Shown piece after piece: positions 5,646 through 42,463 of a stretch of 64,000 bases of DNA. Under the pieces are notes generated by a model. The model did no database searches. It worked only from the letters and a program-made list of their open reading frames with translations, and had not been told where the DNA came from. Position numbers and translations under genes: made by a program. The stretch lies in assembly GCA_016783065.1 (NCBI GenBank), contig JADHXI010000001.1:23610-87609 (forward strand), given 5' to 3'. This stretch comes from Desulfobacteraceae bacterium. GTDB lineage: Bacteria > Desulfobacterota > DSM-4660 > Desulfatiglandales > Desulfatiglandaceae. The first letter of the stretch is position 1. Each line of letters begins with the position of its first letter.

Positions 5646-5830
5646 TTAGGGCTTGCGCAAAAATAACTTAGCAGAATTGGCGCCCAGATTTGGGTCAGAT
5701 TTGGCTGCGCCGATTGAGCAAAACCACAGAAATAGTAGTACTATTTAGAGGATTTTGCGATTGAGGCGCGGCCGAAGATGACCTGAAGATGGGATGCAAA
5801 AATGTAAAGTTATTTTTGCGTAAGCCCTTA
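5646..5830. repeat. 185-bp imperfect palindrome (hairpin-type element) in a divergent intergenic region
   Basis: Terminal arms 5646-5669 and 5807-5830 are reverse complements (22/24). The exact centre is AAATAGTA-G-TACTATTT at 5730-5746. The arms carry internal direct repeats (CAGATTTGG x2 and GAAGATG x2). Confidence 0.55.
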
Positions 5831-5934
5831 TTGAGAAGTTAGAGGAACTGCTCTTGGCAAAGCGGTTACGGGTTTTAGGTTTTCCTTTTCGGGAATAATA
5901 TTGTAATAATGCGTTGGGATGAAAAGGAGGCAGT

Positions 5935-17940: not shown

Positions 17941-18090
17941 TTAGTGCCTGAACGAAAACCCTGTTCAGGCACGATTTTAGATTTTAGATTTTAGATTAAT
18001 GGAATTAATGGAATCAATTCCAACTAACTAAAACCTCATGATTGATGTTGGGTTCGTTTTCATTTCGAGGTTTTCGTTCGGACACTATTT
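17941..18090. mobile_element. ~150-bp MITE-like element, copy A
   Basis: Left end TTAGTGCCTGAACGAAAAC and right end TTTTCGTTCGGACACTATTTA are imperfect terminal inverted repeats. The same ends and the same 150-bp length recur at 22467-22616. The interior holds a 10-bp perfect hairpin (17944-17972), GATTTTA x3 (17973-17997) and AATGGAAT x2. Confidence 0.5.
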
Positions 18091-22466: not shown

Positions 22467-22616
22467 TTAGTGTCTGAACGAAAACTGTCTTTTTCGCCCA
22501 TATCTGCGTCAGACTCAAATTTTAATCCTCGAAATACTCAATGTATTCCTGCGGTTAAAATCTTCGTCTTCCTTGATCTGAACGAAAAATCCTAATTTTC
22601 GTTCGGACACTATTTA
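22467..22616. mobile_element. ~150-bp MITE-like element, copy B
   Basis: Ends TTAGTGTCTGAACGAAAAC and TTTTCGTTCGGACACTATTTA match copy A (18/19 and 21/21). The interior is unrelated. A subterminal hairpin TCTGAACGAAAAAT/AATTTTCGTTCGGA is present. Confidence 0.5.
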
Positions 22617-35169: not shown

Positions 35170-36720
35170 ATGGCTGACTGCGAAGGGCCATATATAGTCG
35201 GGATCGACGGAGGCACCGAGTCAATCCGAACTGGTCTGTTTGACCTGCAGGGAAACCTTCTCCTCTCCAAAAGCAGGCCATACCAGACCCGTTTTCCCCA
35301 ATCCGGTTGGGCTGAACAGGACCCTCAAGAGTGGTGGGTGGCCCTCAAGCAGGCCGTCAGGGATTTGCTGGACGGCACAGATGCTGCGCCCGAGGAAATC
35401 AAGGGTATCGGTGTGGATGCCACATGCTGTACGGTTGTGCTCCTGGACAGCAACATGAACCCCCTCCGCAATGCCCTTTTATGGATGGACGTCCGAGCGG
35501 GTCGAGAGGCCCGTTTCATTGCGGAAAGCGGCCACCCGGCCCTGAAATATAATGGTTTCGGGAATGTGTCAGCCGAGTGGATGCCTTGTAAGGCCTTATG
35601 GTTGAAAAGGAATGAACCGGAGGTCTATTCAAGGGCCGCCATCGCCTGTGAATATCTCGATTTCATTAACTACAGACTTACGGGACGGAAAACCGCCAGC
35701 ATAAATAATGCCTCTGCAAGATGGTATTACGACGACGACGAAGGCGGATTCCCATCTTCCTTCTACGAGGCCATCGAGCTCGGGGATCTCCTATCCAAAT
35801 TCCCCCCTGATGTACTGGACATGGATCAACCTGTTGGCCGTCTTACTCCTGAAGCCGCCTCCCAACTTGGCCTCAAAGAGGAAACCGTCGTGGCTGAAGG
35901 CGGGGCCGACGCCTTTGTGGGGATGATCGGCCTAAACGTGATCGAACCGGGCCGACTCGCCTTTATTACCGGTTCATCCCATCTCCACCTGGGTATGTCG
36001 CCAATGGCCTTTCACAAAAAAGGGATCTTCGGATCGTATCCAAATGCGGTCATCCGCGGGCAGCATACGGTTGAGGGAGGGCAAATTTCAACGGGCTCCA
36101 TCCTTAAGTGGTTCAAGACCCATTTTCTTGGTCATCAGGCAAGGGAGGCGGAAAACCTTAATGAGGATCTTTACAAACTGATGGACAGGAAGGCCAGAGA
36201 GATCCCTCTCGGTTCTGAAGGTTTGATTGTGCTCGACTCATTCCAGGGGAACCGAACCCCGCTTGTGGACCCCGATCTGAGGGGAGCCATATGGGGCCTC
36301 TCTCTTCGTCACAGACCGGAACATGTCTTTAGGGCAATCTTGGAAGGAGTCGCTTACGGGACCGAATTTATCTTCCGCCAATTCCGGGATGCCGGATACG
36401 AAGCCAAGGAAATCTATGCCTGTGGAGGCGCCGCCAAGAGCCTGTTTTGGATGCAGATTCATGCCGACGTAAGCGGACTCCCCATTCACATACCCGAGGT
36501 TCAGGATGCCCCTCTCCTCGGATCCGCAATCCTCGCGAGCGTCGCTTCAGGACTATATCCGACGGTCAGCGAGGCCGCAACGAACATGGTCAAGATCTCT
36601 CATCGCATTGAGCCCGGTCAAGCCAACCACGAGGCCTACCGCTTCTATGTGGACCAATACATAGAGACGTATTCCCAAATGTCCGAATTGATGCATCGAA
36701 TGACAGATGCCGTAAGGTGA
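35170..36720 (+). CDS. FGGY-family carbohydrate kinase (pentulose/ribulokinase-like)
   Basis: IVGIDGGTESIRTGLFD, GWAEQDPQEWW, ACGGAAKSLFWMQIHADV. Confidence 0.85.
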   Translation: MADCEGPYIVGIDGGTESIRTGLFDLQGNLLLSKSRPYQTRFPQSGWAEQDPQEWWVALKQAVRDLLDGTDAAPEEIKGIGVDATCCTVVLLDSNMNPLRNALLWMDVRAGREARFIAESGHPALKYNGFGNVSAEWMPCKALWLKRNEPEVYSRAAIACEYLDFINYRLTGRKTASINNASARWYYDDDEGGFPSSFYEAIELGDLLSKFPPDVLDMDQPVGRLTPEAASQLGLKEETVVAEGGADAFVGMIGLNVIEPGRLAFITGSSHLHLGMSPMAFHKKGIFGSYPNAVIRGQHTVEGGQISTGSILKWFKTHFLGHQAREAENLNEDLYKLMDRKAREIPLGSEGLIVLDSFQGNRTPLVDPDLRGAIWGLSLRHRPEHVFRAILEGVAYGTEFIFRQFRDAGYEAKEIYACGGAAKSLFWMQIHADVSGLPIHIPEVQDAPLLGSAILASVASGLYPTVSEAATNMVKISHRIEPGQANHEAYRFYVDQYIETYSQMSELMHRMTDAVR

Positions 36721-36746
36721 CTTTGTTCAAGCCGGCGCGGGGTAAC

Positions 36747-37000
36747 TCTCAATAAATTCTGGCACCGTGGGGTTCAGCTGTTTCTCTCCGGCGCTCTCTA
36801 AACCTGTCGTGGTAGCGTGGCTGATATTTGGGGTTTTGACAAAAGTTCGGAGAAGCCAACAAGGGTTCATTGGGAGAAAACCCCAAATATCAGCCACTGC
36901 GAAAGTGAGAAGCAAATCCACTTTGAGAGAGCGCCTTCAAGAAACACCCGAACCCCACTCCATAAATTCTATTATTTCTCCCGGATTTATTGAAGTTACC
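36747..37000. repeat. ~250-bp nested-palindrome repeat, copy 1
   Basis: About 85% identical by eye to 41035-41279. Inner perfect 21-bp stem GTGGCTGATATTTGGGGTTTT (36817-37) / AAAACCCCAAATATCAGCCAC (36877-97). Outer ~37-bp imperfect arms (36767-36803 / 36921-36957). Confidence 0.65.
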
Positions 37001-37043
37001 GCTCAGGATGGGATTGGCTACACAAAACGCTCGAAATGACGCC

Positions 37044-37784
37044 CTACCACTTCCAATCCAGACTTGACTCGTCAATATCGAAAGTGAGAAGCGCTTCGTC
37101 TGTCTCGCCTGCTTCATTGATGACAACACCGTTTGGTCCGACGATAAGGCTGTGGCCCAGGTTGATGTGGCCACGGTATGAACCTACAGCGTTGGCCTTG
37201 CAGACAAAAAGCCCGTTCTCATAAGCCCTGGCAATGGGTAGAGCCCGATTTTTGTCGATTTTTAGACGGGCTTCCATAAGCGGATAATAATGGGCGCAGG
37301 AGATAAAAAGGACGTGTGCCCCCGCTTTCTTGACCTTCCTGGCAAGCGAAGGAAAGCTCTGATCCCGGCAGATGATGGTGCCGAATTTGAGCTTCCCCAT
37401 TTCAAAGATCAGAAGATCCGAACCTGCGGCAAAGTATTCATGCTCGTAGGAAACAAGATTGTTCTTGTGGTAGAGGAGACGTCCTCCGTCGGCTAGGAGT
37501 ATGACCACACTGTTGAAAAGCTGATCATCTGCCCGATAGGGAGTGCCCACCACCAGGCTGATCCCCAGGTCCTTGGCCAGTTTACCGAGTTCATCGATGC
37601 TGTAGATTATTTCTTCCGTTTTGACCTTCAGAAATCCGTCGTAAATATATCCCGTCAGGCTCGTCTCGGGGAAATTCAGGATGTCCACACCCTGTTCCGA
37701 TGCCCTTTTCGTCCACTCGCTGATATTTTTCAGATTCTTTTCAAGGTCATGATAAAGATGAATTTGGGCAGCGCCGATTTTCAC
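37044..37784 (-). CDS. carbon-nitrogen hydrolase (nitrilase superfamily) protein
   Basis: GTG start with an AGAGGG SD. NFPETSL (Glu) and TIICRDQSFP (Cys) triad blocks. Confidence 0.8.
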   Translation of the reverse strand: MKIGAAQIHLYHDLEKNLKNISEWTKRASEQGVDILNFPETSLTGYIYDGFLKVKTEEIIYSIDELGKLAKDLGISLVVGTPYRADDQLFNSVVILLADGGRLLYHKNNLVSYEHEYFAAGSDLLIFEMGKLKFGTIICRDQSFPSLARKVKKAGAHVLFISCAHYYPLMEARLKIDKNRALPIARAYENGLFVCKANAVGSYRGHINLGHSLIVGPNGVVINEAGETDEALLTFDIDESSLDWKW

Positions 37785-37795
37785 AAATAAACCCT

Positions 37796-39358
37796 CTAGC
37801 CCCAGTGTTTGCTCTGAACAGCGGCGATTTTGTCGTAAATATCCGCATCCCGGAGGGCCAGAAATGTGTCTCTGAACACACCAAAGACATCTTGATAAAT
37901 GGCATGGTTTTTCATGTCAGGTTCGATCGAACCAAAAGGATGGACCATATGAGTGACGGCCTCCTCAACGGACCCGAACACTCCGGCTCCGGCGGCACCG
38001 AGGATCGTCGCCCCAAGGGTTGTGCATTCAGATACTTCTAATCTCTCCACGGGTCTTCCATAAACATCCGCCTGGATCTGGTTCCAGAGGGGAGATTTTG
38101 CGCCTCCTCCAGAGAGCCTTATGCTTTCAAATGGTTTTCCCAAGACCGCTTCCATTGCATCAACAATCATCCGGAGTTCATAGGCCCCCCCCTCCATGAT
38201 TGAACGGGCCATCATGGCCCTGTCATGGATGAGAGACAACCCGATCGCGCCGCCGCGGGCATTATCCACATAGTGGGGGGTGACCTGACCTGAAAAAAAG
38301 GGAAAAAAGATGTATCCCTTACAGCCTACAGGTGCTGAAGCCGCCTGGGCGCTGATAATGTCGTAGGAATCCATTTCGAGTTCCTGTGCGGTGTGTCTTT
38401 CAACCTGAGCATAGGTGTCCCGCCACCACCGCAGACACACTCCGGTCGCGAATGCAAGCCCTTCCATATCCCATTTGTTAGGGATGGCCGAGCCTCCCAT
38501 AAGGACCAAATGTTCCGGATCGGGCTTTCTGGAGTCGATGTGGGCTACCATCACCGAGGCGGTTCCGATGGTTATTTCGGCCAACCCTTCCCGGATTACC
38601 CCCGCACCGATAGCTGCGCACTGCTGGTCGCCGCCCCCGAAACAGATGGGCATGCCTTTGGCAAAGCCGGATGCCTCAGAAGCTTCCTTCGAAACAACAC
38701 CCACTTGCCTTGCAGGGGTCTTCATCGGGGGAAGTTTTTCCATGGGGAGGCCGATGAGGTCGCAGAGTTCTTTGGACCAGTCAAGCGTGGCAATGTCCAT
38801 CATTCCGTTCAGTGTGATGGATGCCGGGTCAGAAGAGATATCGTCAGCCCCGAATTTGTGAAGAAAAAATTCCTGCCCGTTCACGATTAGGTGGGTCTTT
38901 TCCAGGAGATCGGGTCTTTTGTCCACGACCCATTTCATCTTGGCATAGGACCAGAGGCCTGAGAGAGGGACTCCCGAAATATCATGATACCGGTCCCCTC
39001 CAAGGTTGTCATTTATCCAGTTGAATTCCTCGCCTGCCCTGCCGCAAGACCAGACAATGGAGTCTGCAAGCGGGGTCATGTCCTTGTCCACGCAAACAAA
39101 AGTACCCCGTTGGCTGGAGAACCCCAGCGAGGCAATCTCCTCGGGATTAACCCCTGTTGAAGCAATGACCTCATTGCTTGCTTCACAAAGCCGGGTCCAC
39201 ATAAGTTCCATATCCTGCTCGACCCATCCCGGATGAGGAAAGGCGCAGGGGTATTCTCGGTAGGCCGAACCGATAATATTCCCATCCGTATCTGCAATCA
39301 TGACAGTGACACCCGTGGTGCCAGCATCAATACCGGCTAATAGCTTCTTACCAGCCAT
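37796..39358 (-). CDS. FGGY-family carbohydrate kinase (xylulokinase-like)
   Basis: GGGAGG SD. LLAGIDAGTTGVTVMIAD, HPGWVEQD, LSGGGAKSPLWNQIQADV. Confidence 0.85.
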   Translation of the reverse strand: MAGKKLLAGIDAGTTGVTVMIADTDGNIIGSAYREYPCAFPHPGWVEQDMELMWTRLCEASNEVIASTGVNPEEIASLGFSSQRGTFVCVDKDMTPLADSIVWSCGRAGEEFNWINDNLGGDRYHDISGVPLSGLWSYAKMKWVVDKRPDLLEKTHLIVNGQEFFLHKFGADDISSDPASITLNGMMDIATLDWSKELCDLIGLPMEKLPPMKTPARQVGVVSKEASEASGFAKGMPICFGGGDQQCAAIGAGVIREGLAEITIGTASVMVAHIDSRKPDPEHLVLMGGSAIPNKWDMEGLAFATGVCLRWWRDTYAQVERHTAQELEMDSYDIISAQAASAPVGCKGYIFFPFFSGQVTPHYVDNARGGAIGLSLIHDRAMMARSIMEGGAYELRMIVDAMEAVLGKPFESIRLSGGGAKSPLWNQIQADVYGRPVERLEVSECTTLGATILGAAGAGVFGSVEEAVTHMVHPFGSIEPDMKNHAIYQDVFGVFRDTFLALRDADIYDKIAAVQSKHWG

Positions 39359-39392: not shown

Positions 39393-40955
39393 TTATGTTT
39401 GAGGCCCTGGAGGGACTAGATTGTCGTGGAGCGACTGGATACGGTCAAAGCAGTCAAGAAGGGGACCATTGAGTATTTCATTTCTCGCGTCGGCCATTTT
39501 TTCGTAAAAGGCGGTGAACTCAGGTCTCGGCTGAAAGGTCTCTTTGAATGTCACCCATTCCTTGATCGTTTCTTTCATGTCTTTGATTGCACCGACGCCA
39601 TAGGCCGCAAGCAGGGCATTTCCCATCACCGCGCCTTCCGATTGAGAAGGGATAAGATATTCAAGATCCATCATGTCGGCCTTTATCTGATTCCAGATCC
39701 GGCTGTTGCTCCCCCCGCCTGCCCCGATCATCTGGTTGACCGGAAATCCCTCGTCCCTCAAAACATGGGTCCAGTAAAGATATTCAAAGGCGACGGACTC
39801 CAGCATCGATCGCCAGACATGGCCGGCCTGGTTCGATCCCCTTAGCCCCAACCATGTGCCGCTGGCCGTTGGCCAGAAAGGAGAACTCCTTCCCTGTAAA
39901 AAGGGGAAAAACATGGCAAAATCAGAACCCGCCGGGACTTTTTCCGCCAGCTTGTCCAGTTCACGGTAGACTTCGTCAACACCCGGCTTCCTGTAGACCT
40001 CGTCCCGATACCAGCGCAAGCTGAGCCCTCCGGCGGGGATAAACGCCCACAGGAGGTATTGGTCGTCAAAGGTGTTCATTGCGTTTACAAGGACCTTCTT
40101 TTGGGTAATGGCCGGGTCCACATCGCTGAGCGCAAAGGCAGCGATGGAAGCGGTGCCTGCCACATCAAAAGACATCCCCACATCGGTCAGGCCGCACCCC
40201 AGACAGGATTGCATGATATCGCCCGCGCCTGCAACCAGAGGAATCCCGGGTTTCAGACCTAGGACCGAGGCCTCCTCAGGACAGAGTTCGCCCACCACTT
40301 CCCAGGGTTTTACCACACGGGGCAGAATTTCATAGGGCAGGCCCAGAATTTCGATCTGCTTCTCAGACCAGTCTCGTTTTTTGGCATCAAATCCGATGAC
40401 CCATCCCGACTGATGAGCCCAATCCACAAAGGCGTCTTTGGCCTTGAGAGCCCCGAATTTACCCATCACGTAATGGGCGGCCCCCACGACTTTCTCGGCT
40501 TCTTTGCGGACCTCAGGCATATTGGCCAGAACCCATTTTAAAATTACCGGCGGCATATAGGCGCCAGGTTCGGCATTTCCGCTTTCCTCAGCCCAAAGGG
40601 GATCGGCATCCTTGAGATCCTGGACCTCTTTTTGCGCCCGCCCGTCCAGATAAGGAATATAGGGACCCAGTGCCCTCCAATCAGAATCAATGGGAACGAT
40701 GCCGCAGATGATACCGCTGCAGCTAATGCCGCCCACTTCACCGGGGTCCACCTTTCCGGTCGTGATGCATTCCTTGATTCCTTCTCTCACCACCCGATAA
40801 AACTGCTCAGCCTCCATCTCGGCCCAACCCGGTTTGGGGTAGAGGATTTCATGCTCACGATAGGCATCCGCTACAAGCTCTCCATCAATGGTGTAGATGG
40901 CCACCTTTGTGCCCATGGTTCCGCAATCATAACCGATATAATAGGGTTTTGTCAT
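39393..40955 (-). CDS. FGGY-family carbohydrate kinase (divergent)
   Basis: Start set to ATG 40955 (MTKPYYIGYDCGTMGTK) with a GAGGAGG SD. GAGGGSNSRIWNQIKADM. Confidence 0.8.
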   Translation of the reverse strand: MTKPYYIGYDCGTMGTKVAIYTIDGELVADAYREHEILYPKPGWAEMEAEQFYRVVREGIKECITTGKVDPGEVGGISCSGIICGIVPIDSDWRALGPYIPYLDGRAQKEVQDLKDADPLWAEESGNAEPGAYMPPVILKWVLANMPEVRKEAEKVVGAAHYVMGKFGALKAKDAFVDWAHQSGWVIGFDAKKRDWSEKQIEILGLPYEILPRVVKPWEVVGELCPEEASVLGLKPGIPLVAGAGDIMQSCLGCGLTDVGMSFDVAGTASIAAFALSDVDPAITQKKVLVNAMNTFDDQYLLWAFIPAGGLSLRWYRDEVYRKPGVDEVYRELDKLAEKVPAGSDFAMFFPFLQGRSSPFWPTASGTWLGLRGSNQAGHVWRSMLESVAFEYLYWTHVLRDEGFPVNQMIGAGGGSNSRIWNQIKADMMDLEYLIPSQSEGAVMGNALLAAYGVGAIKDMKETIKEWVTFKETFQPRPEFTAFYEKMADARNEILNGPLLDCFDRIQSLHDNLVPPGPQT

Positions 40956-41034
40956 TGTCTCTGCCTCCTCACGGGTCTTGAGCCTCACCCACTCCTTTTC
41001 TTCTGCAACGGGTCATTTTGTAGGTTCTCAATAA

Positions 41035-41279
41035 TCTCGGGTACCGTGGGGTTCGGCTATTTCTTTCAGGCGCTCTCTAAACCTATAGTCGCAGCGTGGC
41101 TGATATTTGGGGTTTTGCCAAAAGCATGGAGAAGCTAATATGGCTTATCAGGAGAAAACCCCAAATATCAACCACTGCCAACATGGGAAGTAAATTCACT
41201 TTGAGAGAGCGCCTTCAAGAAACACCCGAACCCCACTCCAGAAATTCTATTATTTCTCCCGGACTTATTGAGAAGTTAC
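41035..41279. repeat. ~250-bp nested-palindrome repeat, copy 2
   Basis: Same element as 36747-37000. It lies inside a co-directional gene string between the ABC ATPase stop (41290) and the FGGY kinase start (40955). Confidence 0.65.
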
Positions 41280-41289
41280 AAAAAATGCC

Positions 41290-42405
41290 TCAAAAATAGG
41301 CCTCTTGGGTTTCCCGATTGAACAGATGCATCTTGTTCTTCATTGTTTCGAGCCATACCCTATTGCCCATCCTGATATCCAGATCCACAGAGGTCTTGAG
41401 CTTTAGCTTATTATTGGGAATGGTCACATCCACAATCATATCCTCTCCCAACGGCTCTGTAACATAGACCTCTCCCCAGAAGCCCTCTCCTCTTGCCTTT
41501 TCACCGGAAATCACGAAATTCTCTGGTCTGACACCCAATACCACCTCCAGGGGTCTGGAGGACGGATCTCCGTTTTTTTTCTTGAATTTTTCTATCAAGT
41601 CAGGGGGCAAGTTGATCTTGAACGATTCGTTTATCAAATTCCATGAATCTCCACTGACCTCCAGACCGCAATCAATAAAGTTCATAGGGGGGTCGCCAAC
41701 AAACCCGGCCACAAATTGATTTACAGGCTGGTTAAAGATCTCATCCGGTGTTCCAACCTGCTGAAGAAGTCCGAGATCCATAATTGCGATGCGATCGGCC
41801 ATACTCATGGCCTCCAGTTGGTCATGTGTCACATAGATCATGGTTGATTCGAGGACTTTTTGGAGATGTTTCAACTCCCCTCGCATATGGGTTCGGAGTT
41901 TGGCATCAAGATGGGATATGGGTTCGTCCATGAGAAAGACCTGAGGCTCCCGCACAATTGCCCGTCCAATAGCAACCCGCTGGCGCTGTCCGCCTGAGAG
42001 TTGTTTGGGATAGCGATCAAGGAGTTCTGAGATTTCAAGGATTTTCGCCGCCTTCTGCACCCGTTCCTTTATCTCCGAATGGGAATAGTTGCGTTTTCCC
42101 ACACGGAGAGGAAAAGCCATATTTGCATAGACCGTCTTGTGCGGGTAAAGGGCGTAAGTCTCGAAGACCATGGCGATATCGCGATCCTTTGGTTCCACCT
42201 CATTAATCACGTTGTCTCCGATCAGAATTTCGCCCTCGGAAATCTCCTCCAGGCCTGCAATCATCCTCAAGGTCGAGGATTTTCCGCATCCCGAAGGTCC
42301 GAGAAGGCAGAAAAACTCTTTGTCCTTACATTCAAGAGACAGATCGATGACAGCCTCAATCTTTCCATACAGTTTCCAAACATTGGTGAGTGTCACTTTC
42401 GCCAA
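41290..42405 (-). CDS. ABC transporter ATP-binding protein (MalK/UgpC-like)
   Basis: Walker A GPSGCGKSS, LSGGQRQR, FLMDEP. Start set to TTG 42405 (..AKVTLTNV) 5 nt after AGGAGG. The upstream ATG lies within or before the SD. Confidence 0.85.
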   Translation of the reverse strand: MAKVTLTNVWKLYGKIEAVIDLSLECKDKEFFCLLGPSGCGKSSTLRMIAGLEEISEGEILIGDNVINEVEPKDRDIAMVFETYALYPHKTVYANMAFPLRVGKRNYSHSEIKERVQKAAKILEISELLDRYPKQLSGGQRQRVAIGRAIVREPQVFLMDEPISHLDAKLRTHMRGELKHLQKVLESTMIYVTHDQLEAMSMADRIAIMDLGLLQQVGTPDEIFNQPVNQFVAGFVGDPPMNFIDCGLEVSGDSWNLINESFKINLPPDLIEKFKKKNGDPSSRPLEVVLGVRPENFVISGEKARGEGFWGEVYVTEPLGEDMIVDVTIPNNKLKLKTSVDLDIRMGNRVWLETMKNKMHLFNRETQEAYF

Positions 42406-42463
42406 AACGAACCTCCTAAGACATAAATTCACATATATCCGGCTGAATCATAAATTTCGTTTC

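Follow-up and report, generated by a model that had tools for sequence, protein, structure and literature searches.

The long hairpin repeat that occurs twice in the window, the 64,000-nt stretch of DNA analysed here, is very probably a MITE that carries the terminal inverted repeats (TIRs) of an IS66-family (ISBst12-like) element and is supplied with transposase in trans, as judged from sequence comparisons. Its 22-bp TIRs, 8-bp target-site duplications, copy number of more than 100, empty sites and the identical TIRs on insertion sequences (ISs) of IS66 type that themselves make duplications identify the repeat as a MITE, one of three readings offered in a preliminary description, which had also considered an ERIC/BIME-type element and a structured RNA acting as terminator or mRNA stabiliser. 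The family is genuine and well defined, and not surprising in kind. It had been called novel-looking; this holds in that the family is undescribed in the searchable literature, but the kind of element is ordinary. Literature searches on MITEs in Desulfobacter-type bacteria and on IS66-derived MITEs returned nothing specific, and the literature searched contained no MITE attributed to the IS66 family.

The two window copies (Table 1) lie in the same orientation and are 87–88% identical (MAFFT mean column identity 88%), slightly more than the ~85% estimated by eye in the preliminary description; the repeat finder reports the pair as two ungapped blocks of 79% and 90%. The element had been located correctly, but the ends given for it fell a few bases short once the TIRs are included. 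In copy 1, imperfect outer arms surround the inner stem, and extra pairing extends to the very ends. A perfect 21-bp inner stem closing a 39-nt loop, described earlier for each copy, is present with its outer arms in copy 1, whereas the inner stem of copy 2 contains one C·A mismatch. Folding both strands of copy 1 (–118.4 kcal/mol for the plus strand, –120.2 kcal/mol for the minus strand) and the plus strand of copy 2 (–116.7 kcal/mol) confirmed the long nested hairpin, with z-scores of –9.4 to –10.4 and 0 of 200 shuffles equally stable. The placement of copy 1 between convergent genes was also correct, with the FGGY kinase on the plus strand and the CN-hydrolase on the minus strand, as was the suspicion of spurious ORFs, several of which (58–94 aa) cross copy 1. 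Copy 1 has slightly decayed TIRs. Neither window copy has an intact duplication: the 8-mers on either side of copy 1, GGCGCGGG and CGCTCAGG, agree at only 5/8 positions, and those on either side of copy 2 fail to match. The copy 2 flanks, 41012–41019 (GTCATTTT) and 41280–41287 (AAAAAATG), are roughly inverted, not direct, repeats.

Table 1. Coordinates of the two MITE copies, their parts and the neighbouring genes in the window, and of two plasmid-borne ISs
Feature	Position	Strand	Description
MITE copy 1	36742..36999	+	258 bp, between convergent FGGY kinase and CN-hydrolase genes
Copy 1 left TIR	36742..36762	+	GTAAC-TCTCAATAAATTCTGG; 1-nt deletion vs consensus
Copy 1 right TIR	36980..36999	-	CCCGGATTTATTGAAGTTAC; 2-nt deletion vs consensus
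Copy 1 left outer hairpin arm	36767..36802	+	pairs with 36922-36958
Copy 1 inner stem, left arm	36817..36837	+	perfect 21 bp
Copy 1 loop closed by inner stem	36838-36876		39 nt
Copy 1 inner stem, right arm	36877..36897	+	perfect 21 bp
Copy 1 right outer hairpin arm	36922..36958	+	pairs with 36767-36802
MITE copy 2	41020..41279	+	260 bp, within minus-strand operon, in ABC-transporter ATPase / FGGY kinase gap
Copy 2 left TIR	41020..41041	+	GTAGGTTCTCAATAATCTCGGG
Copy 2 right TIR	41258..41279	-	minus strand reads GTAACTTCTCAATAAGTCCGGG; 1 mismatch vs order-wide TIR
FGGY carbohydrate kinase gene	35170..36720	+	stop codon 21 bp ahead of copy 1
Carbon-nitrogen hydrolase gene	37044..37784	-	stop codon 44 bp past copy 1
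FGGY kinase gene	39393..40988	-	downstream of copy 2 in operon
ABC-transporter ATPase (MalK-like) gene	41290..42432	-	upstream of copy 2 in operon; stop codon 10 bp away
Plasmid IS (L182)	Allochromatium tepidum pAt1, 37315-39055		complete; annotated only 'transposase'
Plasmid IS (L183)	Caballeronia sp. SBC1 pSBC1_3		complete; annotated only 'transposase'

The host is an uncultured Desulfobacteraceae bacterium of sulfate-reducer type represented by a MAG of 3.69 Mb in 208 contigs that is 72% complete. A genome-wide BLAST search for copy number, suggested in the preliminary description, found the element in 121 places of this MAG. Sixty-nine of these matches are at least 200 nt long and ~58 are full length; the copies are 75–93% identical to copy 1, and the element makes up 0.6% of the genome. 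We aligned 57 full-length copies together with 40-nt flanks. Conservation breaks off abruptly at a left limit of GTAAGTTCTCAATAAGTTCGGG and a right limit of CCCGGACTTATTGAGAAGTTAC, which together form a 22-bp TIR, GTAA(G/C)TTCTCAATAAGT(T/C)CGGG. The consensus is ~261 bp long and has no coding capacity, only short spurious ORFs created by the palindrome.

Just outside the TIRs, many copies carry identical 8-mers, for example TTGAAATT, GCTTTAGG, GAAAGAGT and CATTGAAG. Among 51 TIR-bounded elements, the 8-bp duplication is perfect in 16, has one mismatch in 16 and two mismatches in 8. Flanking 8-mers with no or one mismatch are thus found at 32/51 elements, as against 0/51 for the control 8-mers next outward, which show at least three mismatches in every case. 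The insertion targets are AT-rich, with a GC content of 38% versus 50% genome-wide. Two size classes stand out, of ~260 bp (n = 35) and, owing to a 32-bp insert, ~290 bp (n = 5); deletion derivatives of 51–178 bp keep the duplications, and solo ends are numerous. Some elements of 51–75 bp (G000:C168:13897-13969, C109:24044-24118 and C192:4766-4816) comprise little beyond the two TIRs, yet 8-bp duplications still flank them; such elements represent minimal mobile units or else deletion derivatives of an extreme kind.

Each of the three genomes of the genus contains the element in abundance; the two sisters, CSMAG_5 and CSMAG_720, are MAGs from cold seeps that bear the label Desulfobacteraceae. 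The whole element was not found in the rest of the family or order, bar weak partial matches. The flanks of sister-genome copies were used as BLAST queries against the window's genome. One pair of loci (L046 vs C146) reveals a precise empty site, in which a single copy of the target corresponds to the sequence duplicated as CCCTCTTT in the sister. At a second pair (L064 vs C155) the insertions of the two species are independent: they are separated by 22 bp, point in opposite directions and are flanked by different 8-bp duplications (GCTTTAGG and GATCAAAA), so that each species shows the empty site for the insertion of the other. Among the sister/window pairs examined, there was no clearly shared orthologous insertion.

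Copy 2 is absent from one sister (G002:C56), in which the ATPase stop lies ~25 bp from the kinase start; for the site of copy 1, no orthologue was found in either sister genome. We also inspected the copy 2 locus in natural populations, using contigs from four public DNA runs. One estuary-metagenome contig connects 41019 to 41279, with 259 nt missing and three letters (AAC) between, a junction that falls within a base of the copy 2 boundaries derived from the TIRs. Empty sites, which the preliminary description had recommended looking for, therefore occur both in a sister species and in a natural population; with its three extra letters, the natural empty allele of copy 2 is near-precise and not a textbook single-copy target. 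The odd flanks of copy 2 and the AAC of the empty allele possibly reflect an inter-copy rearrangement, a footprint left by excision or a spacer that has diverged. Three runs (X1, X5 and X6) contain one contig each that joins 41279 back to 41024, that is, it goes back 256; these joins, whose shorter side is 33 nt, could stem from tandem copies elsewhere in the community or from a circular form.

Copies are 80–97% identical to their own consensus and the most similar pair reaches at most 96.9%; the family is not a very recent burst. In a tree that combines the copies of the window's genome with those of the sisters, sorting by genome is only partial, with 16 label changes versus ~27 after shuffling. 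This partial sorting argues that amplification began before the species split and continued after it.

Gene context was assessed with a crude ORF-based call, according to which ~80% of the genome is coding. By this call, 61/69 copies of at least 200 nt are intergenic, and the eight gene overlaps are probably located at ORF ends over-extended by the simple caller. Copies often lie within tens of bases of gene ends. The genes flanking 55 classified gaps are arranged in tandem in 41 cases, divergently in 10 and convergently in 4, i.e. convergent gaps are not enriched. In tandem contexts, 20 elements have the same orientation as the genes and 21 the opposite one; element orientation relative to the flanking genes is random.

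The proximity to gene ends, the intergenic location and a hairpin that is very stable on both strands (z-scores as above) would all suit a structured RNA that is mainly selected by the host and has spread by its usefulness, for example in terminating transcripts, in stabilising mRNA or as a site for RNase III. We consider this highly unlikely. A terminator or other host-selected RNA is at odds with the random orientation (20 vs 21) and with the 4/55 convergent gaps; the main hairpin lacks a T-tract on its 3' side, and scans for promoter-like or terminator-like sites gave no more than the background level of shuffled sequences. Rfam searches of the whole window at the gathering threshold and of 36650–37100 at E ≤ 1 gave no match. 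Thus, neither Rfam nor the T-tract, orientation and convergent-gap tests support the terminator/stabiliser RNA proposed in the preliminary description, and TIRs, target-site duplications and presence/absence polymorphism show that the element has spread by transposition.

The stem substitutions bear on the same question. Over 69 arm-to-arm pairs in 57 copies most substitutions are uncompensated, and G:U (~151) and A:C (~169) mismatches are balanced, indicating that neither RNA strand is favoured; both observations speak against a host-selected RNA. A point in its favour is that compensated double changes exceed the permutations, with 49 cells observed versus 20 ± 4 (maximum 34) by permutation and 1–18 when the partners are slid; the 49 cells trace back to 25 distinct events over 25 copies. 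We read this excess as a modest hairpin constraint or as arm-to-arm correction; it is no evidence for a strand-specific RNA function. That fold-back of the whole length is itself selected seems doubtful, be it that a hairpin joining the TIRs aids an IS66-type transposase or that copies within operons, copy 2 among them, serve as RNA processing or attenuation sites. If it were, the 25 compensated stem changes would be its trace.

The MITE reading is strengthened by its link to a transposase. GTAAG/GTAAC ends combined with an 8-bp duplication suggest the IS66 family, the elements of which have 20–30-bp inverted repeats beginning with GTAAGCG and 8-bp direct repeats (PMC11946415). In ISDge4, a single-ORF member of the ISBst12 group, the TIRs read GTAACTGCTCAGCA/GTGACTACTCAGCA and the repeat is 8 bp long (PMC12898284). 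The first link between the TIR and a transposase was provided by contig G043:C132, in which the TIR lies 90 bp from the transposase stop codon. The encoded protein scores 68.9 bits with PF03050 (DDE_Tnp_IS66; cut-off 23.1) and 123.7 bits with the NCBIfam IS66 model NF033517, below the equivalog cut-off of 180. Transposases of this clade score 51–69 bits with PF03050 (cut-off 23.1), and the domain match covers the C-terminal half only. As the NF033517 score remains below the equivalog cut-off, these proteins constitute a divergent branch, the family placement of which rests on Pfam and on the signature of ends and duplication.

A complete element from another genus of the same family (G072:C196) comprises 1,788 bp with one 533-aa ORF and perfect 24-bp TIRs that differ from the left TIR of the MITE at one position. 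The TIR-bounded IS66-type elements are 1,777–1,789 bp long (~1.78 kb) and contain one ORF each, of 531–533 aa; overall, autonomous elements with this TIR span ~1.74–2.03 kb and have a single DDE_Tnp_IS66 ORF. The TIR GTAACTTCTCAATAAGTTCGGG is exact in further members of the transposase clade. Target-site duplications of the ISs were scored on long contigs and finished plasmids only; contigs assembled from short reads had mismatched flanks and were rejected as chimeric assemblies of multi-copy elements. The duplication is a perfect 8 bp in 5/5 independent insertions on long metagenomic contigs. Allochromatium tepidum and Caballeronia sp. carry homologous ISs with 52% identical transposases on plasmids of finished sequence. 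These ISs share the GTAACTTCTCAATAA ends, and their 8-bp duplications, CGATTTTT and CATCAGCT, are perfect; their GTAACTTCTCAATAAGTC... ends together with the duplications would permit naming them as ISBst12-like IS66-family elements. A more distant IS group, with ~34% identical transposases and a length of ~2.8 kb, has the ends GTATCATCTCAATAAATAGGGG and an 8-bp duplication.

The MITE thus shares with the ISBst12 group (ISBst12, ISDge4) ends that begin with GTAAC/GTAAG, GTAACTGCTCA in ISDge4 versus GTAACTTCTCA in the MITE (PMC12898284, PMC11946415), and 8-bp target-site duplications are common to ISDge4 and the MITE. In contrast to these ISs, the window element is non-coding and, at 261 bp, a passenger, and the transposase associated with it is divergent. 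Similarity between MITE and ISs is confined to the 22-bp TIR; inside the TIRs the MITE has nothing in common with the ISs found, and its interior is hence not a simple deletion derivative of them.

Across the order, the TIR is present in 80/209 genomes, representing 46/89 genera and three families, while the control search with the reversed pattern gave almost no matches (0–1 per genome). Of eight genomes in the order with close transposase homologs, seven carry the TIR at ≤2 mismatches and the eighth (G095) has a more diverged TIR variant. Neither PF03050 nor the clade transposases (P0001/P0002) were detected in the window's genome or in the two sisters, MAGs that are 69–83% complete. No TIR pair in the window's genome (G000) encloses a gene; the pairs represent only the ~260/~290-bp MITEs, the 51–178-bp derivatives and nested or rearranged copies, next to solo ends. 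Transposase homologs are, however, very common in metagenomes, mostly on contigs of 1.8–2.3 kb. The IS thus assembles alone, as a short high-coverage contig, and binning normally omits it from a MAG; together with the incompleteness of the genomes (69–83%), this renders the absence of the transposase from three MAGs uninformative. We infer that a transposase of the IS66-type clade moves the element and that a copy of its gene exists, or existed, in the host.

That none of the genus's three genomes contains an IS66-type gene could also mean that the MITE is moved by another family that makes 8-bp duplications (e.g. ISL3, IS256 or IS1595) and that its match to the IS66 TIR is coincidental. This is extremely improbable, as matches at 21–22 of the 22 TIR positions recur in many independent elements from several phyla, far beyond chance when compared to the reversed-pattern control, and as the TIR accompanies close transposase homologs in the eight genomes in the manner described above (7/8 at ≤2 mismatches, a variant in G095).

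The missing DDE partner in the same genome would also be compatible with a REP/BIME- or ERIC-like unit that owes its spread to recombination or to a RAYT (Y1, IS200/IS605-like) transposase. Like the element, the ERIC and REP/BIME repeats of enterobacteria are imperfect palindromes that occur in many intergenic copies and are able to fold in mRNA. They differ from it in taxa, sizes and sequences: at 261 bp the element far exceeds REP units (about 35–40 bp), and REP/BIME units are not known to have TIRs or an 8-bp target duplication and are linked to RAYT (Y1) transposases, whereas the MITE has DDE-type TIRs and 8-bp duplications. Because these 22-bp TIRs and duplications are clear, and because the same TIR also forms the ends of IS66-type elements with a DDE transposase, which likewise produce 8-bp duplications, a REP- or ERIC-like origin is barely credible, and the ERIC/BIME-type reading of the preliminary description does not fit.

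We therefore return to the MITE and to how it may have spread. In the mechanism that we propose, the element is a non-coding, non-autonomous DNA transposon of ~261 bp with a 22-bp TIR at each end. A single-ORF DDE transposase of ~533 aa, encoded by a ~1.78-kb IS with the same ends, would bind both TIRs and insert the element via staggered cuts 8 bp apart, the repair of which would generate the 8-bp target-site duplication. The hairpin is a property of the sequence of the element itself, its arms being the two ends plus internal palindromes, and for this reason read-through transcripts and single-stranded DNA can fold. The element spread inside one uncultured Desulfobacteraceae genus both before and after the species split, and copies survive almost only between genes because insertions into genes are selected against.

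Parallels exist in other bacteria. Correia elements, MITEs of Neisseria, are likewise high-copy and intergenic, form a long hairpin through pairing of their ends when a transcript reads through them, and are often located inside operons, like copy 2; their sequence is unrelated to that of the window MITE. They measure ~100–155 bp, have 26-bp TIRs and duplicate TA, and RNase III processing and promoter effects have been demonstrated for them; to our knowledge, no transposase has been identified. MITEs of cyanobacteria and other bacteria (Nezha, MITEPsy) share with the element TIRs that match those of an autonomous IS around an unrelated interior, as well as genome-wide bursts that gave rise to subfamilies and deletion derivatives; the difference is the parent IS family.

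Recognition of the family explains a conspicuous repeat that causes false ORFs and broken assemblies in Desulfobacteraceae MAGs from cold seeps and marine sediments, and offers annotators a signature for masking, namely the 22-bp TIR plus the 8-bp duplication. It ties this TIR signature to a widespread, unnamed single-ORF branch of IS66, the ends of which are conserved from Desulfobacterales to Gamma- and Betaproteobacteria. Transposition of IS66 type is poorly characterised, and MITEs assigned to the IS66 family have no prominent place in the literature; a convenient system for its study would be this small natural substrate, the ends of which are defined, in combination with a candidate 533-aa transposase. 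Polymorphic insertions of the element could, in addition, be used to mark strains in these uncultured populations.

Elsewhere in the order, the TIR bounds other small elements of ~125–320 bp (e.g. in G082, G005, G031 and G060). Those of G005 (L163–L174) fall into several subfamilies with a mean identity of only 64%, each of which has its own perfectly matched ends of ~30 bp and an 8-bp duplication. Co-variation between their arms was considered as a sign of fold-back copying; this was discarded as the elements are only 48–70% self-complementary and several subfamilies, each with its own matched ends, explain it better. Within the window, a palindrome at 5646–5842 ends with CCCTTATTGAGAAGTTAG, which contains the TIR core (15 of the first 16 positions match), and its opposite terminus is truncated; its sequence suggests that it belongs to this TIR superfamily but has decayed, and its interior is a different one. 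Two elements of ~150 bp (17941–18090 and 22467–22616) do not match the TIR even at 6 mismatches and, if mobile, belong to a different family.

Two hints of an IS in another genome of the order, G106, were dismissed. Many of its contigs start inside a TIR variant, for which high-copy MITEs alone can suffice as an explanation. On contig C362, a pair of TIRs 1.43 kb apart encloses a host gene for an Fe-alcohol dehydrogenase instead of a transposase gene. At this locus (L093, G106:C362:2400-4900; positions 542–1970), the dehydrogenase gene is situated between a ~109-bp MITE and an inverted solo TIR, a bracket that could constitute a composite unit, mobile in principle.
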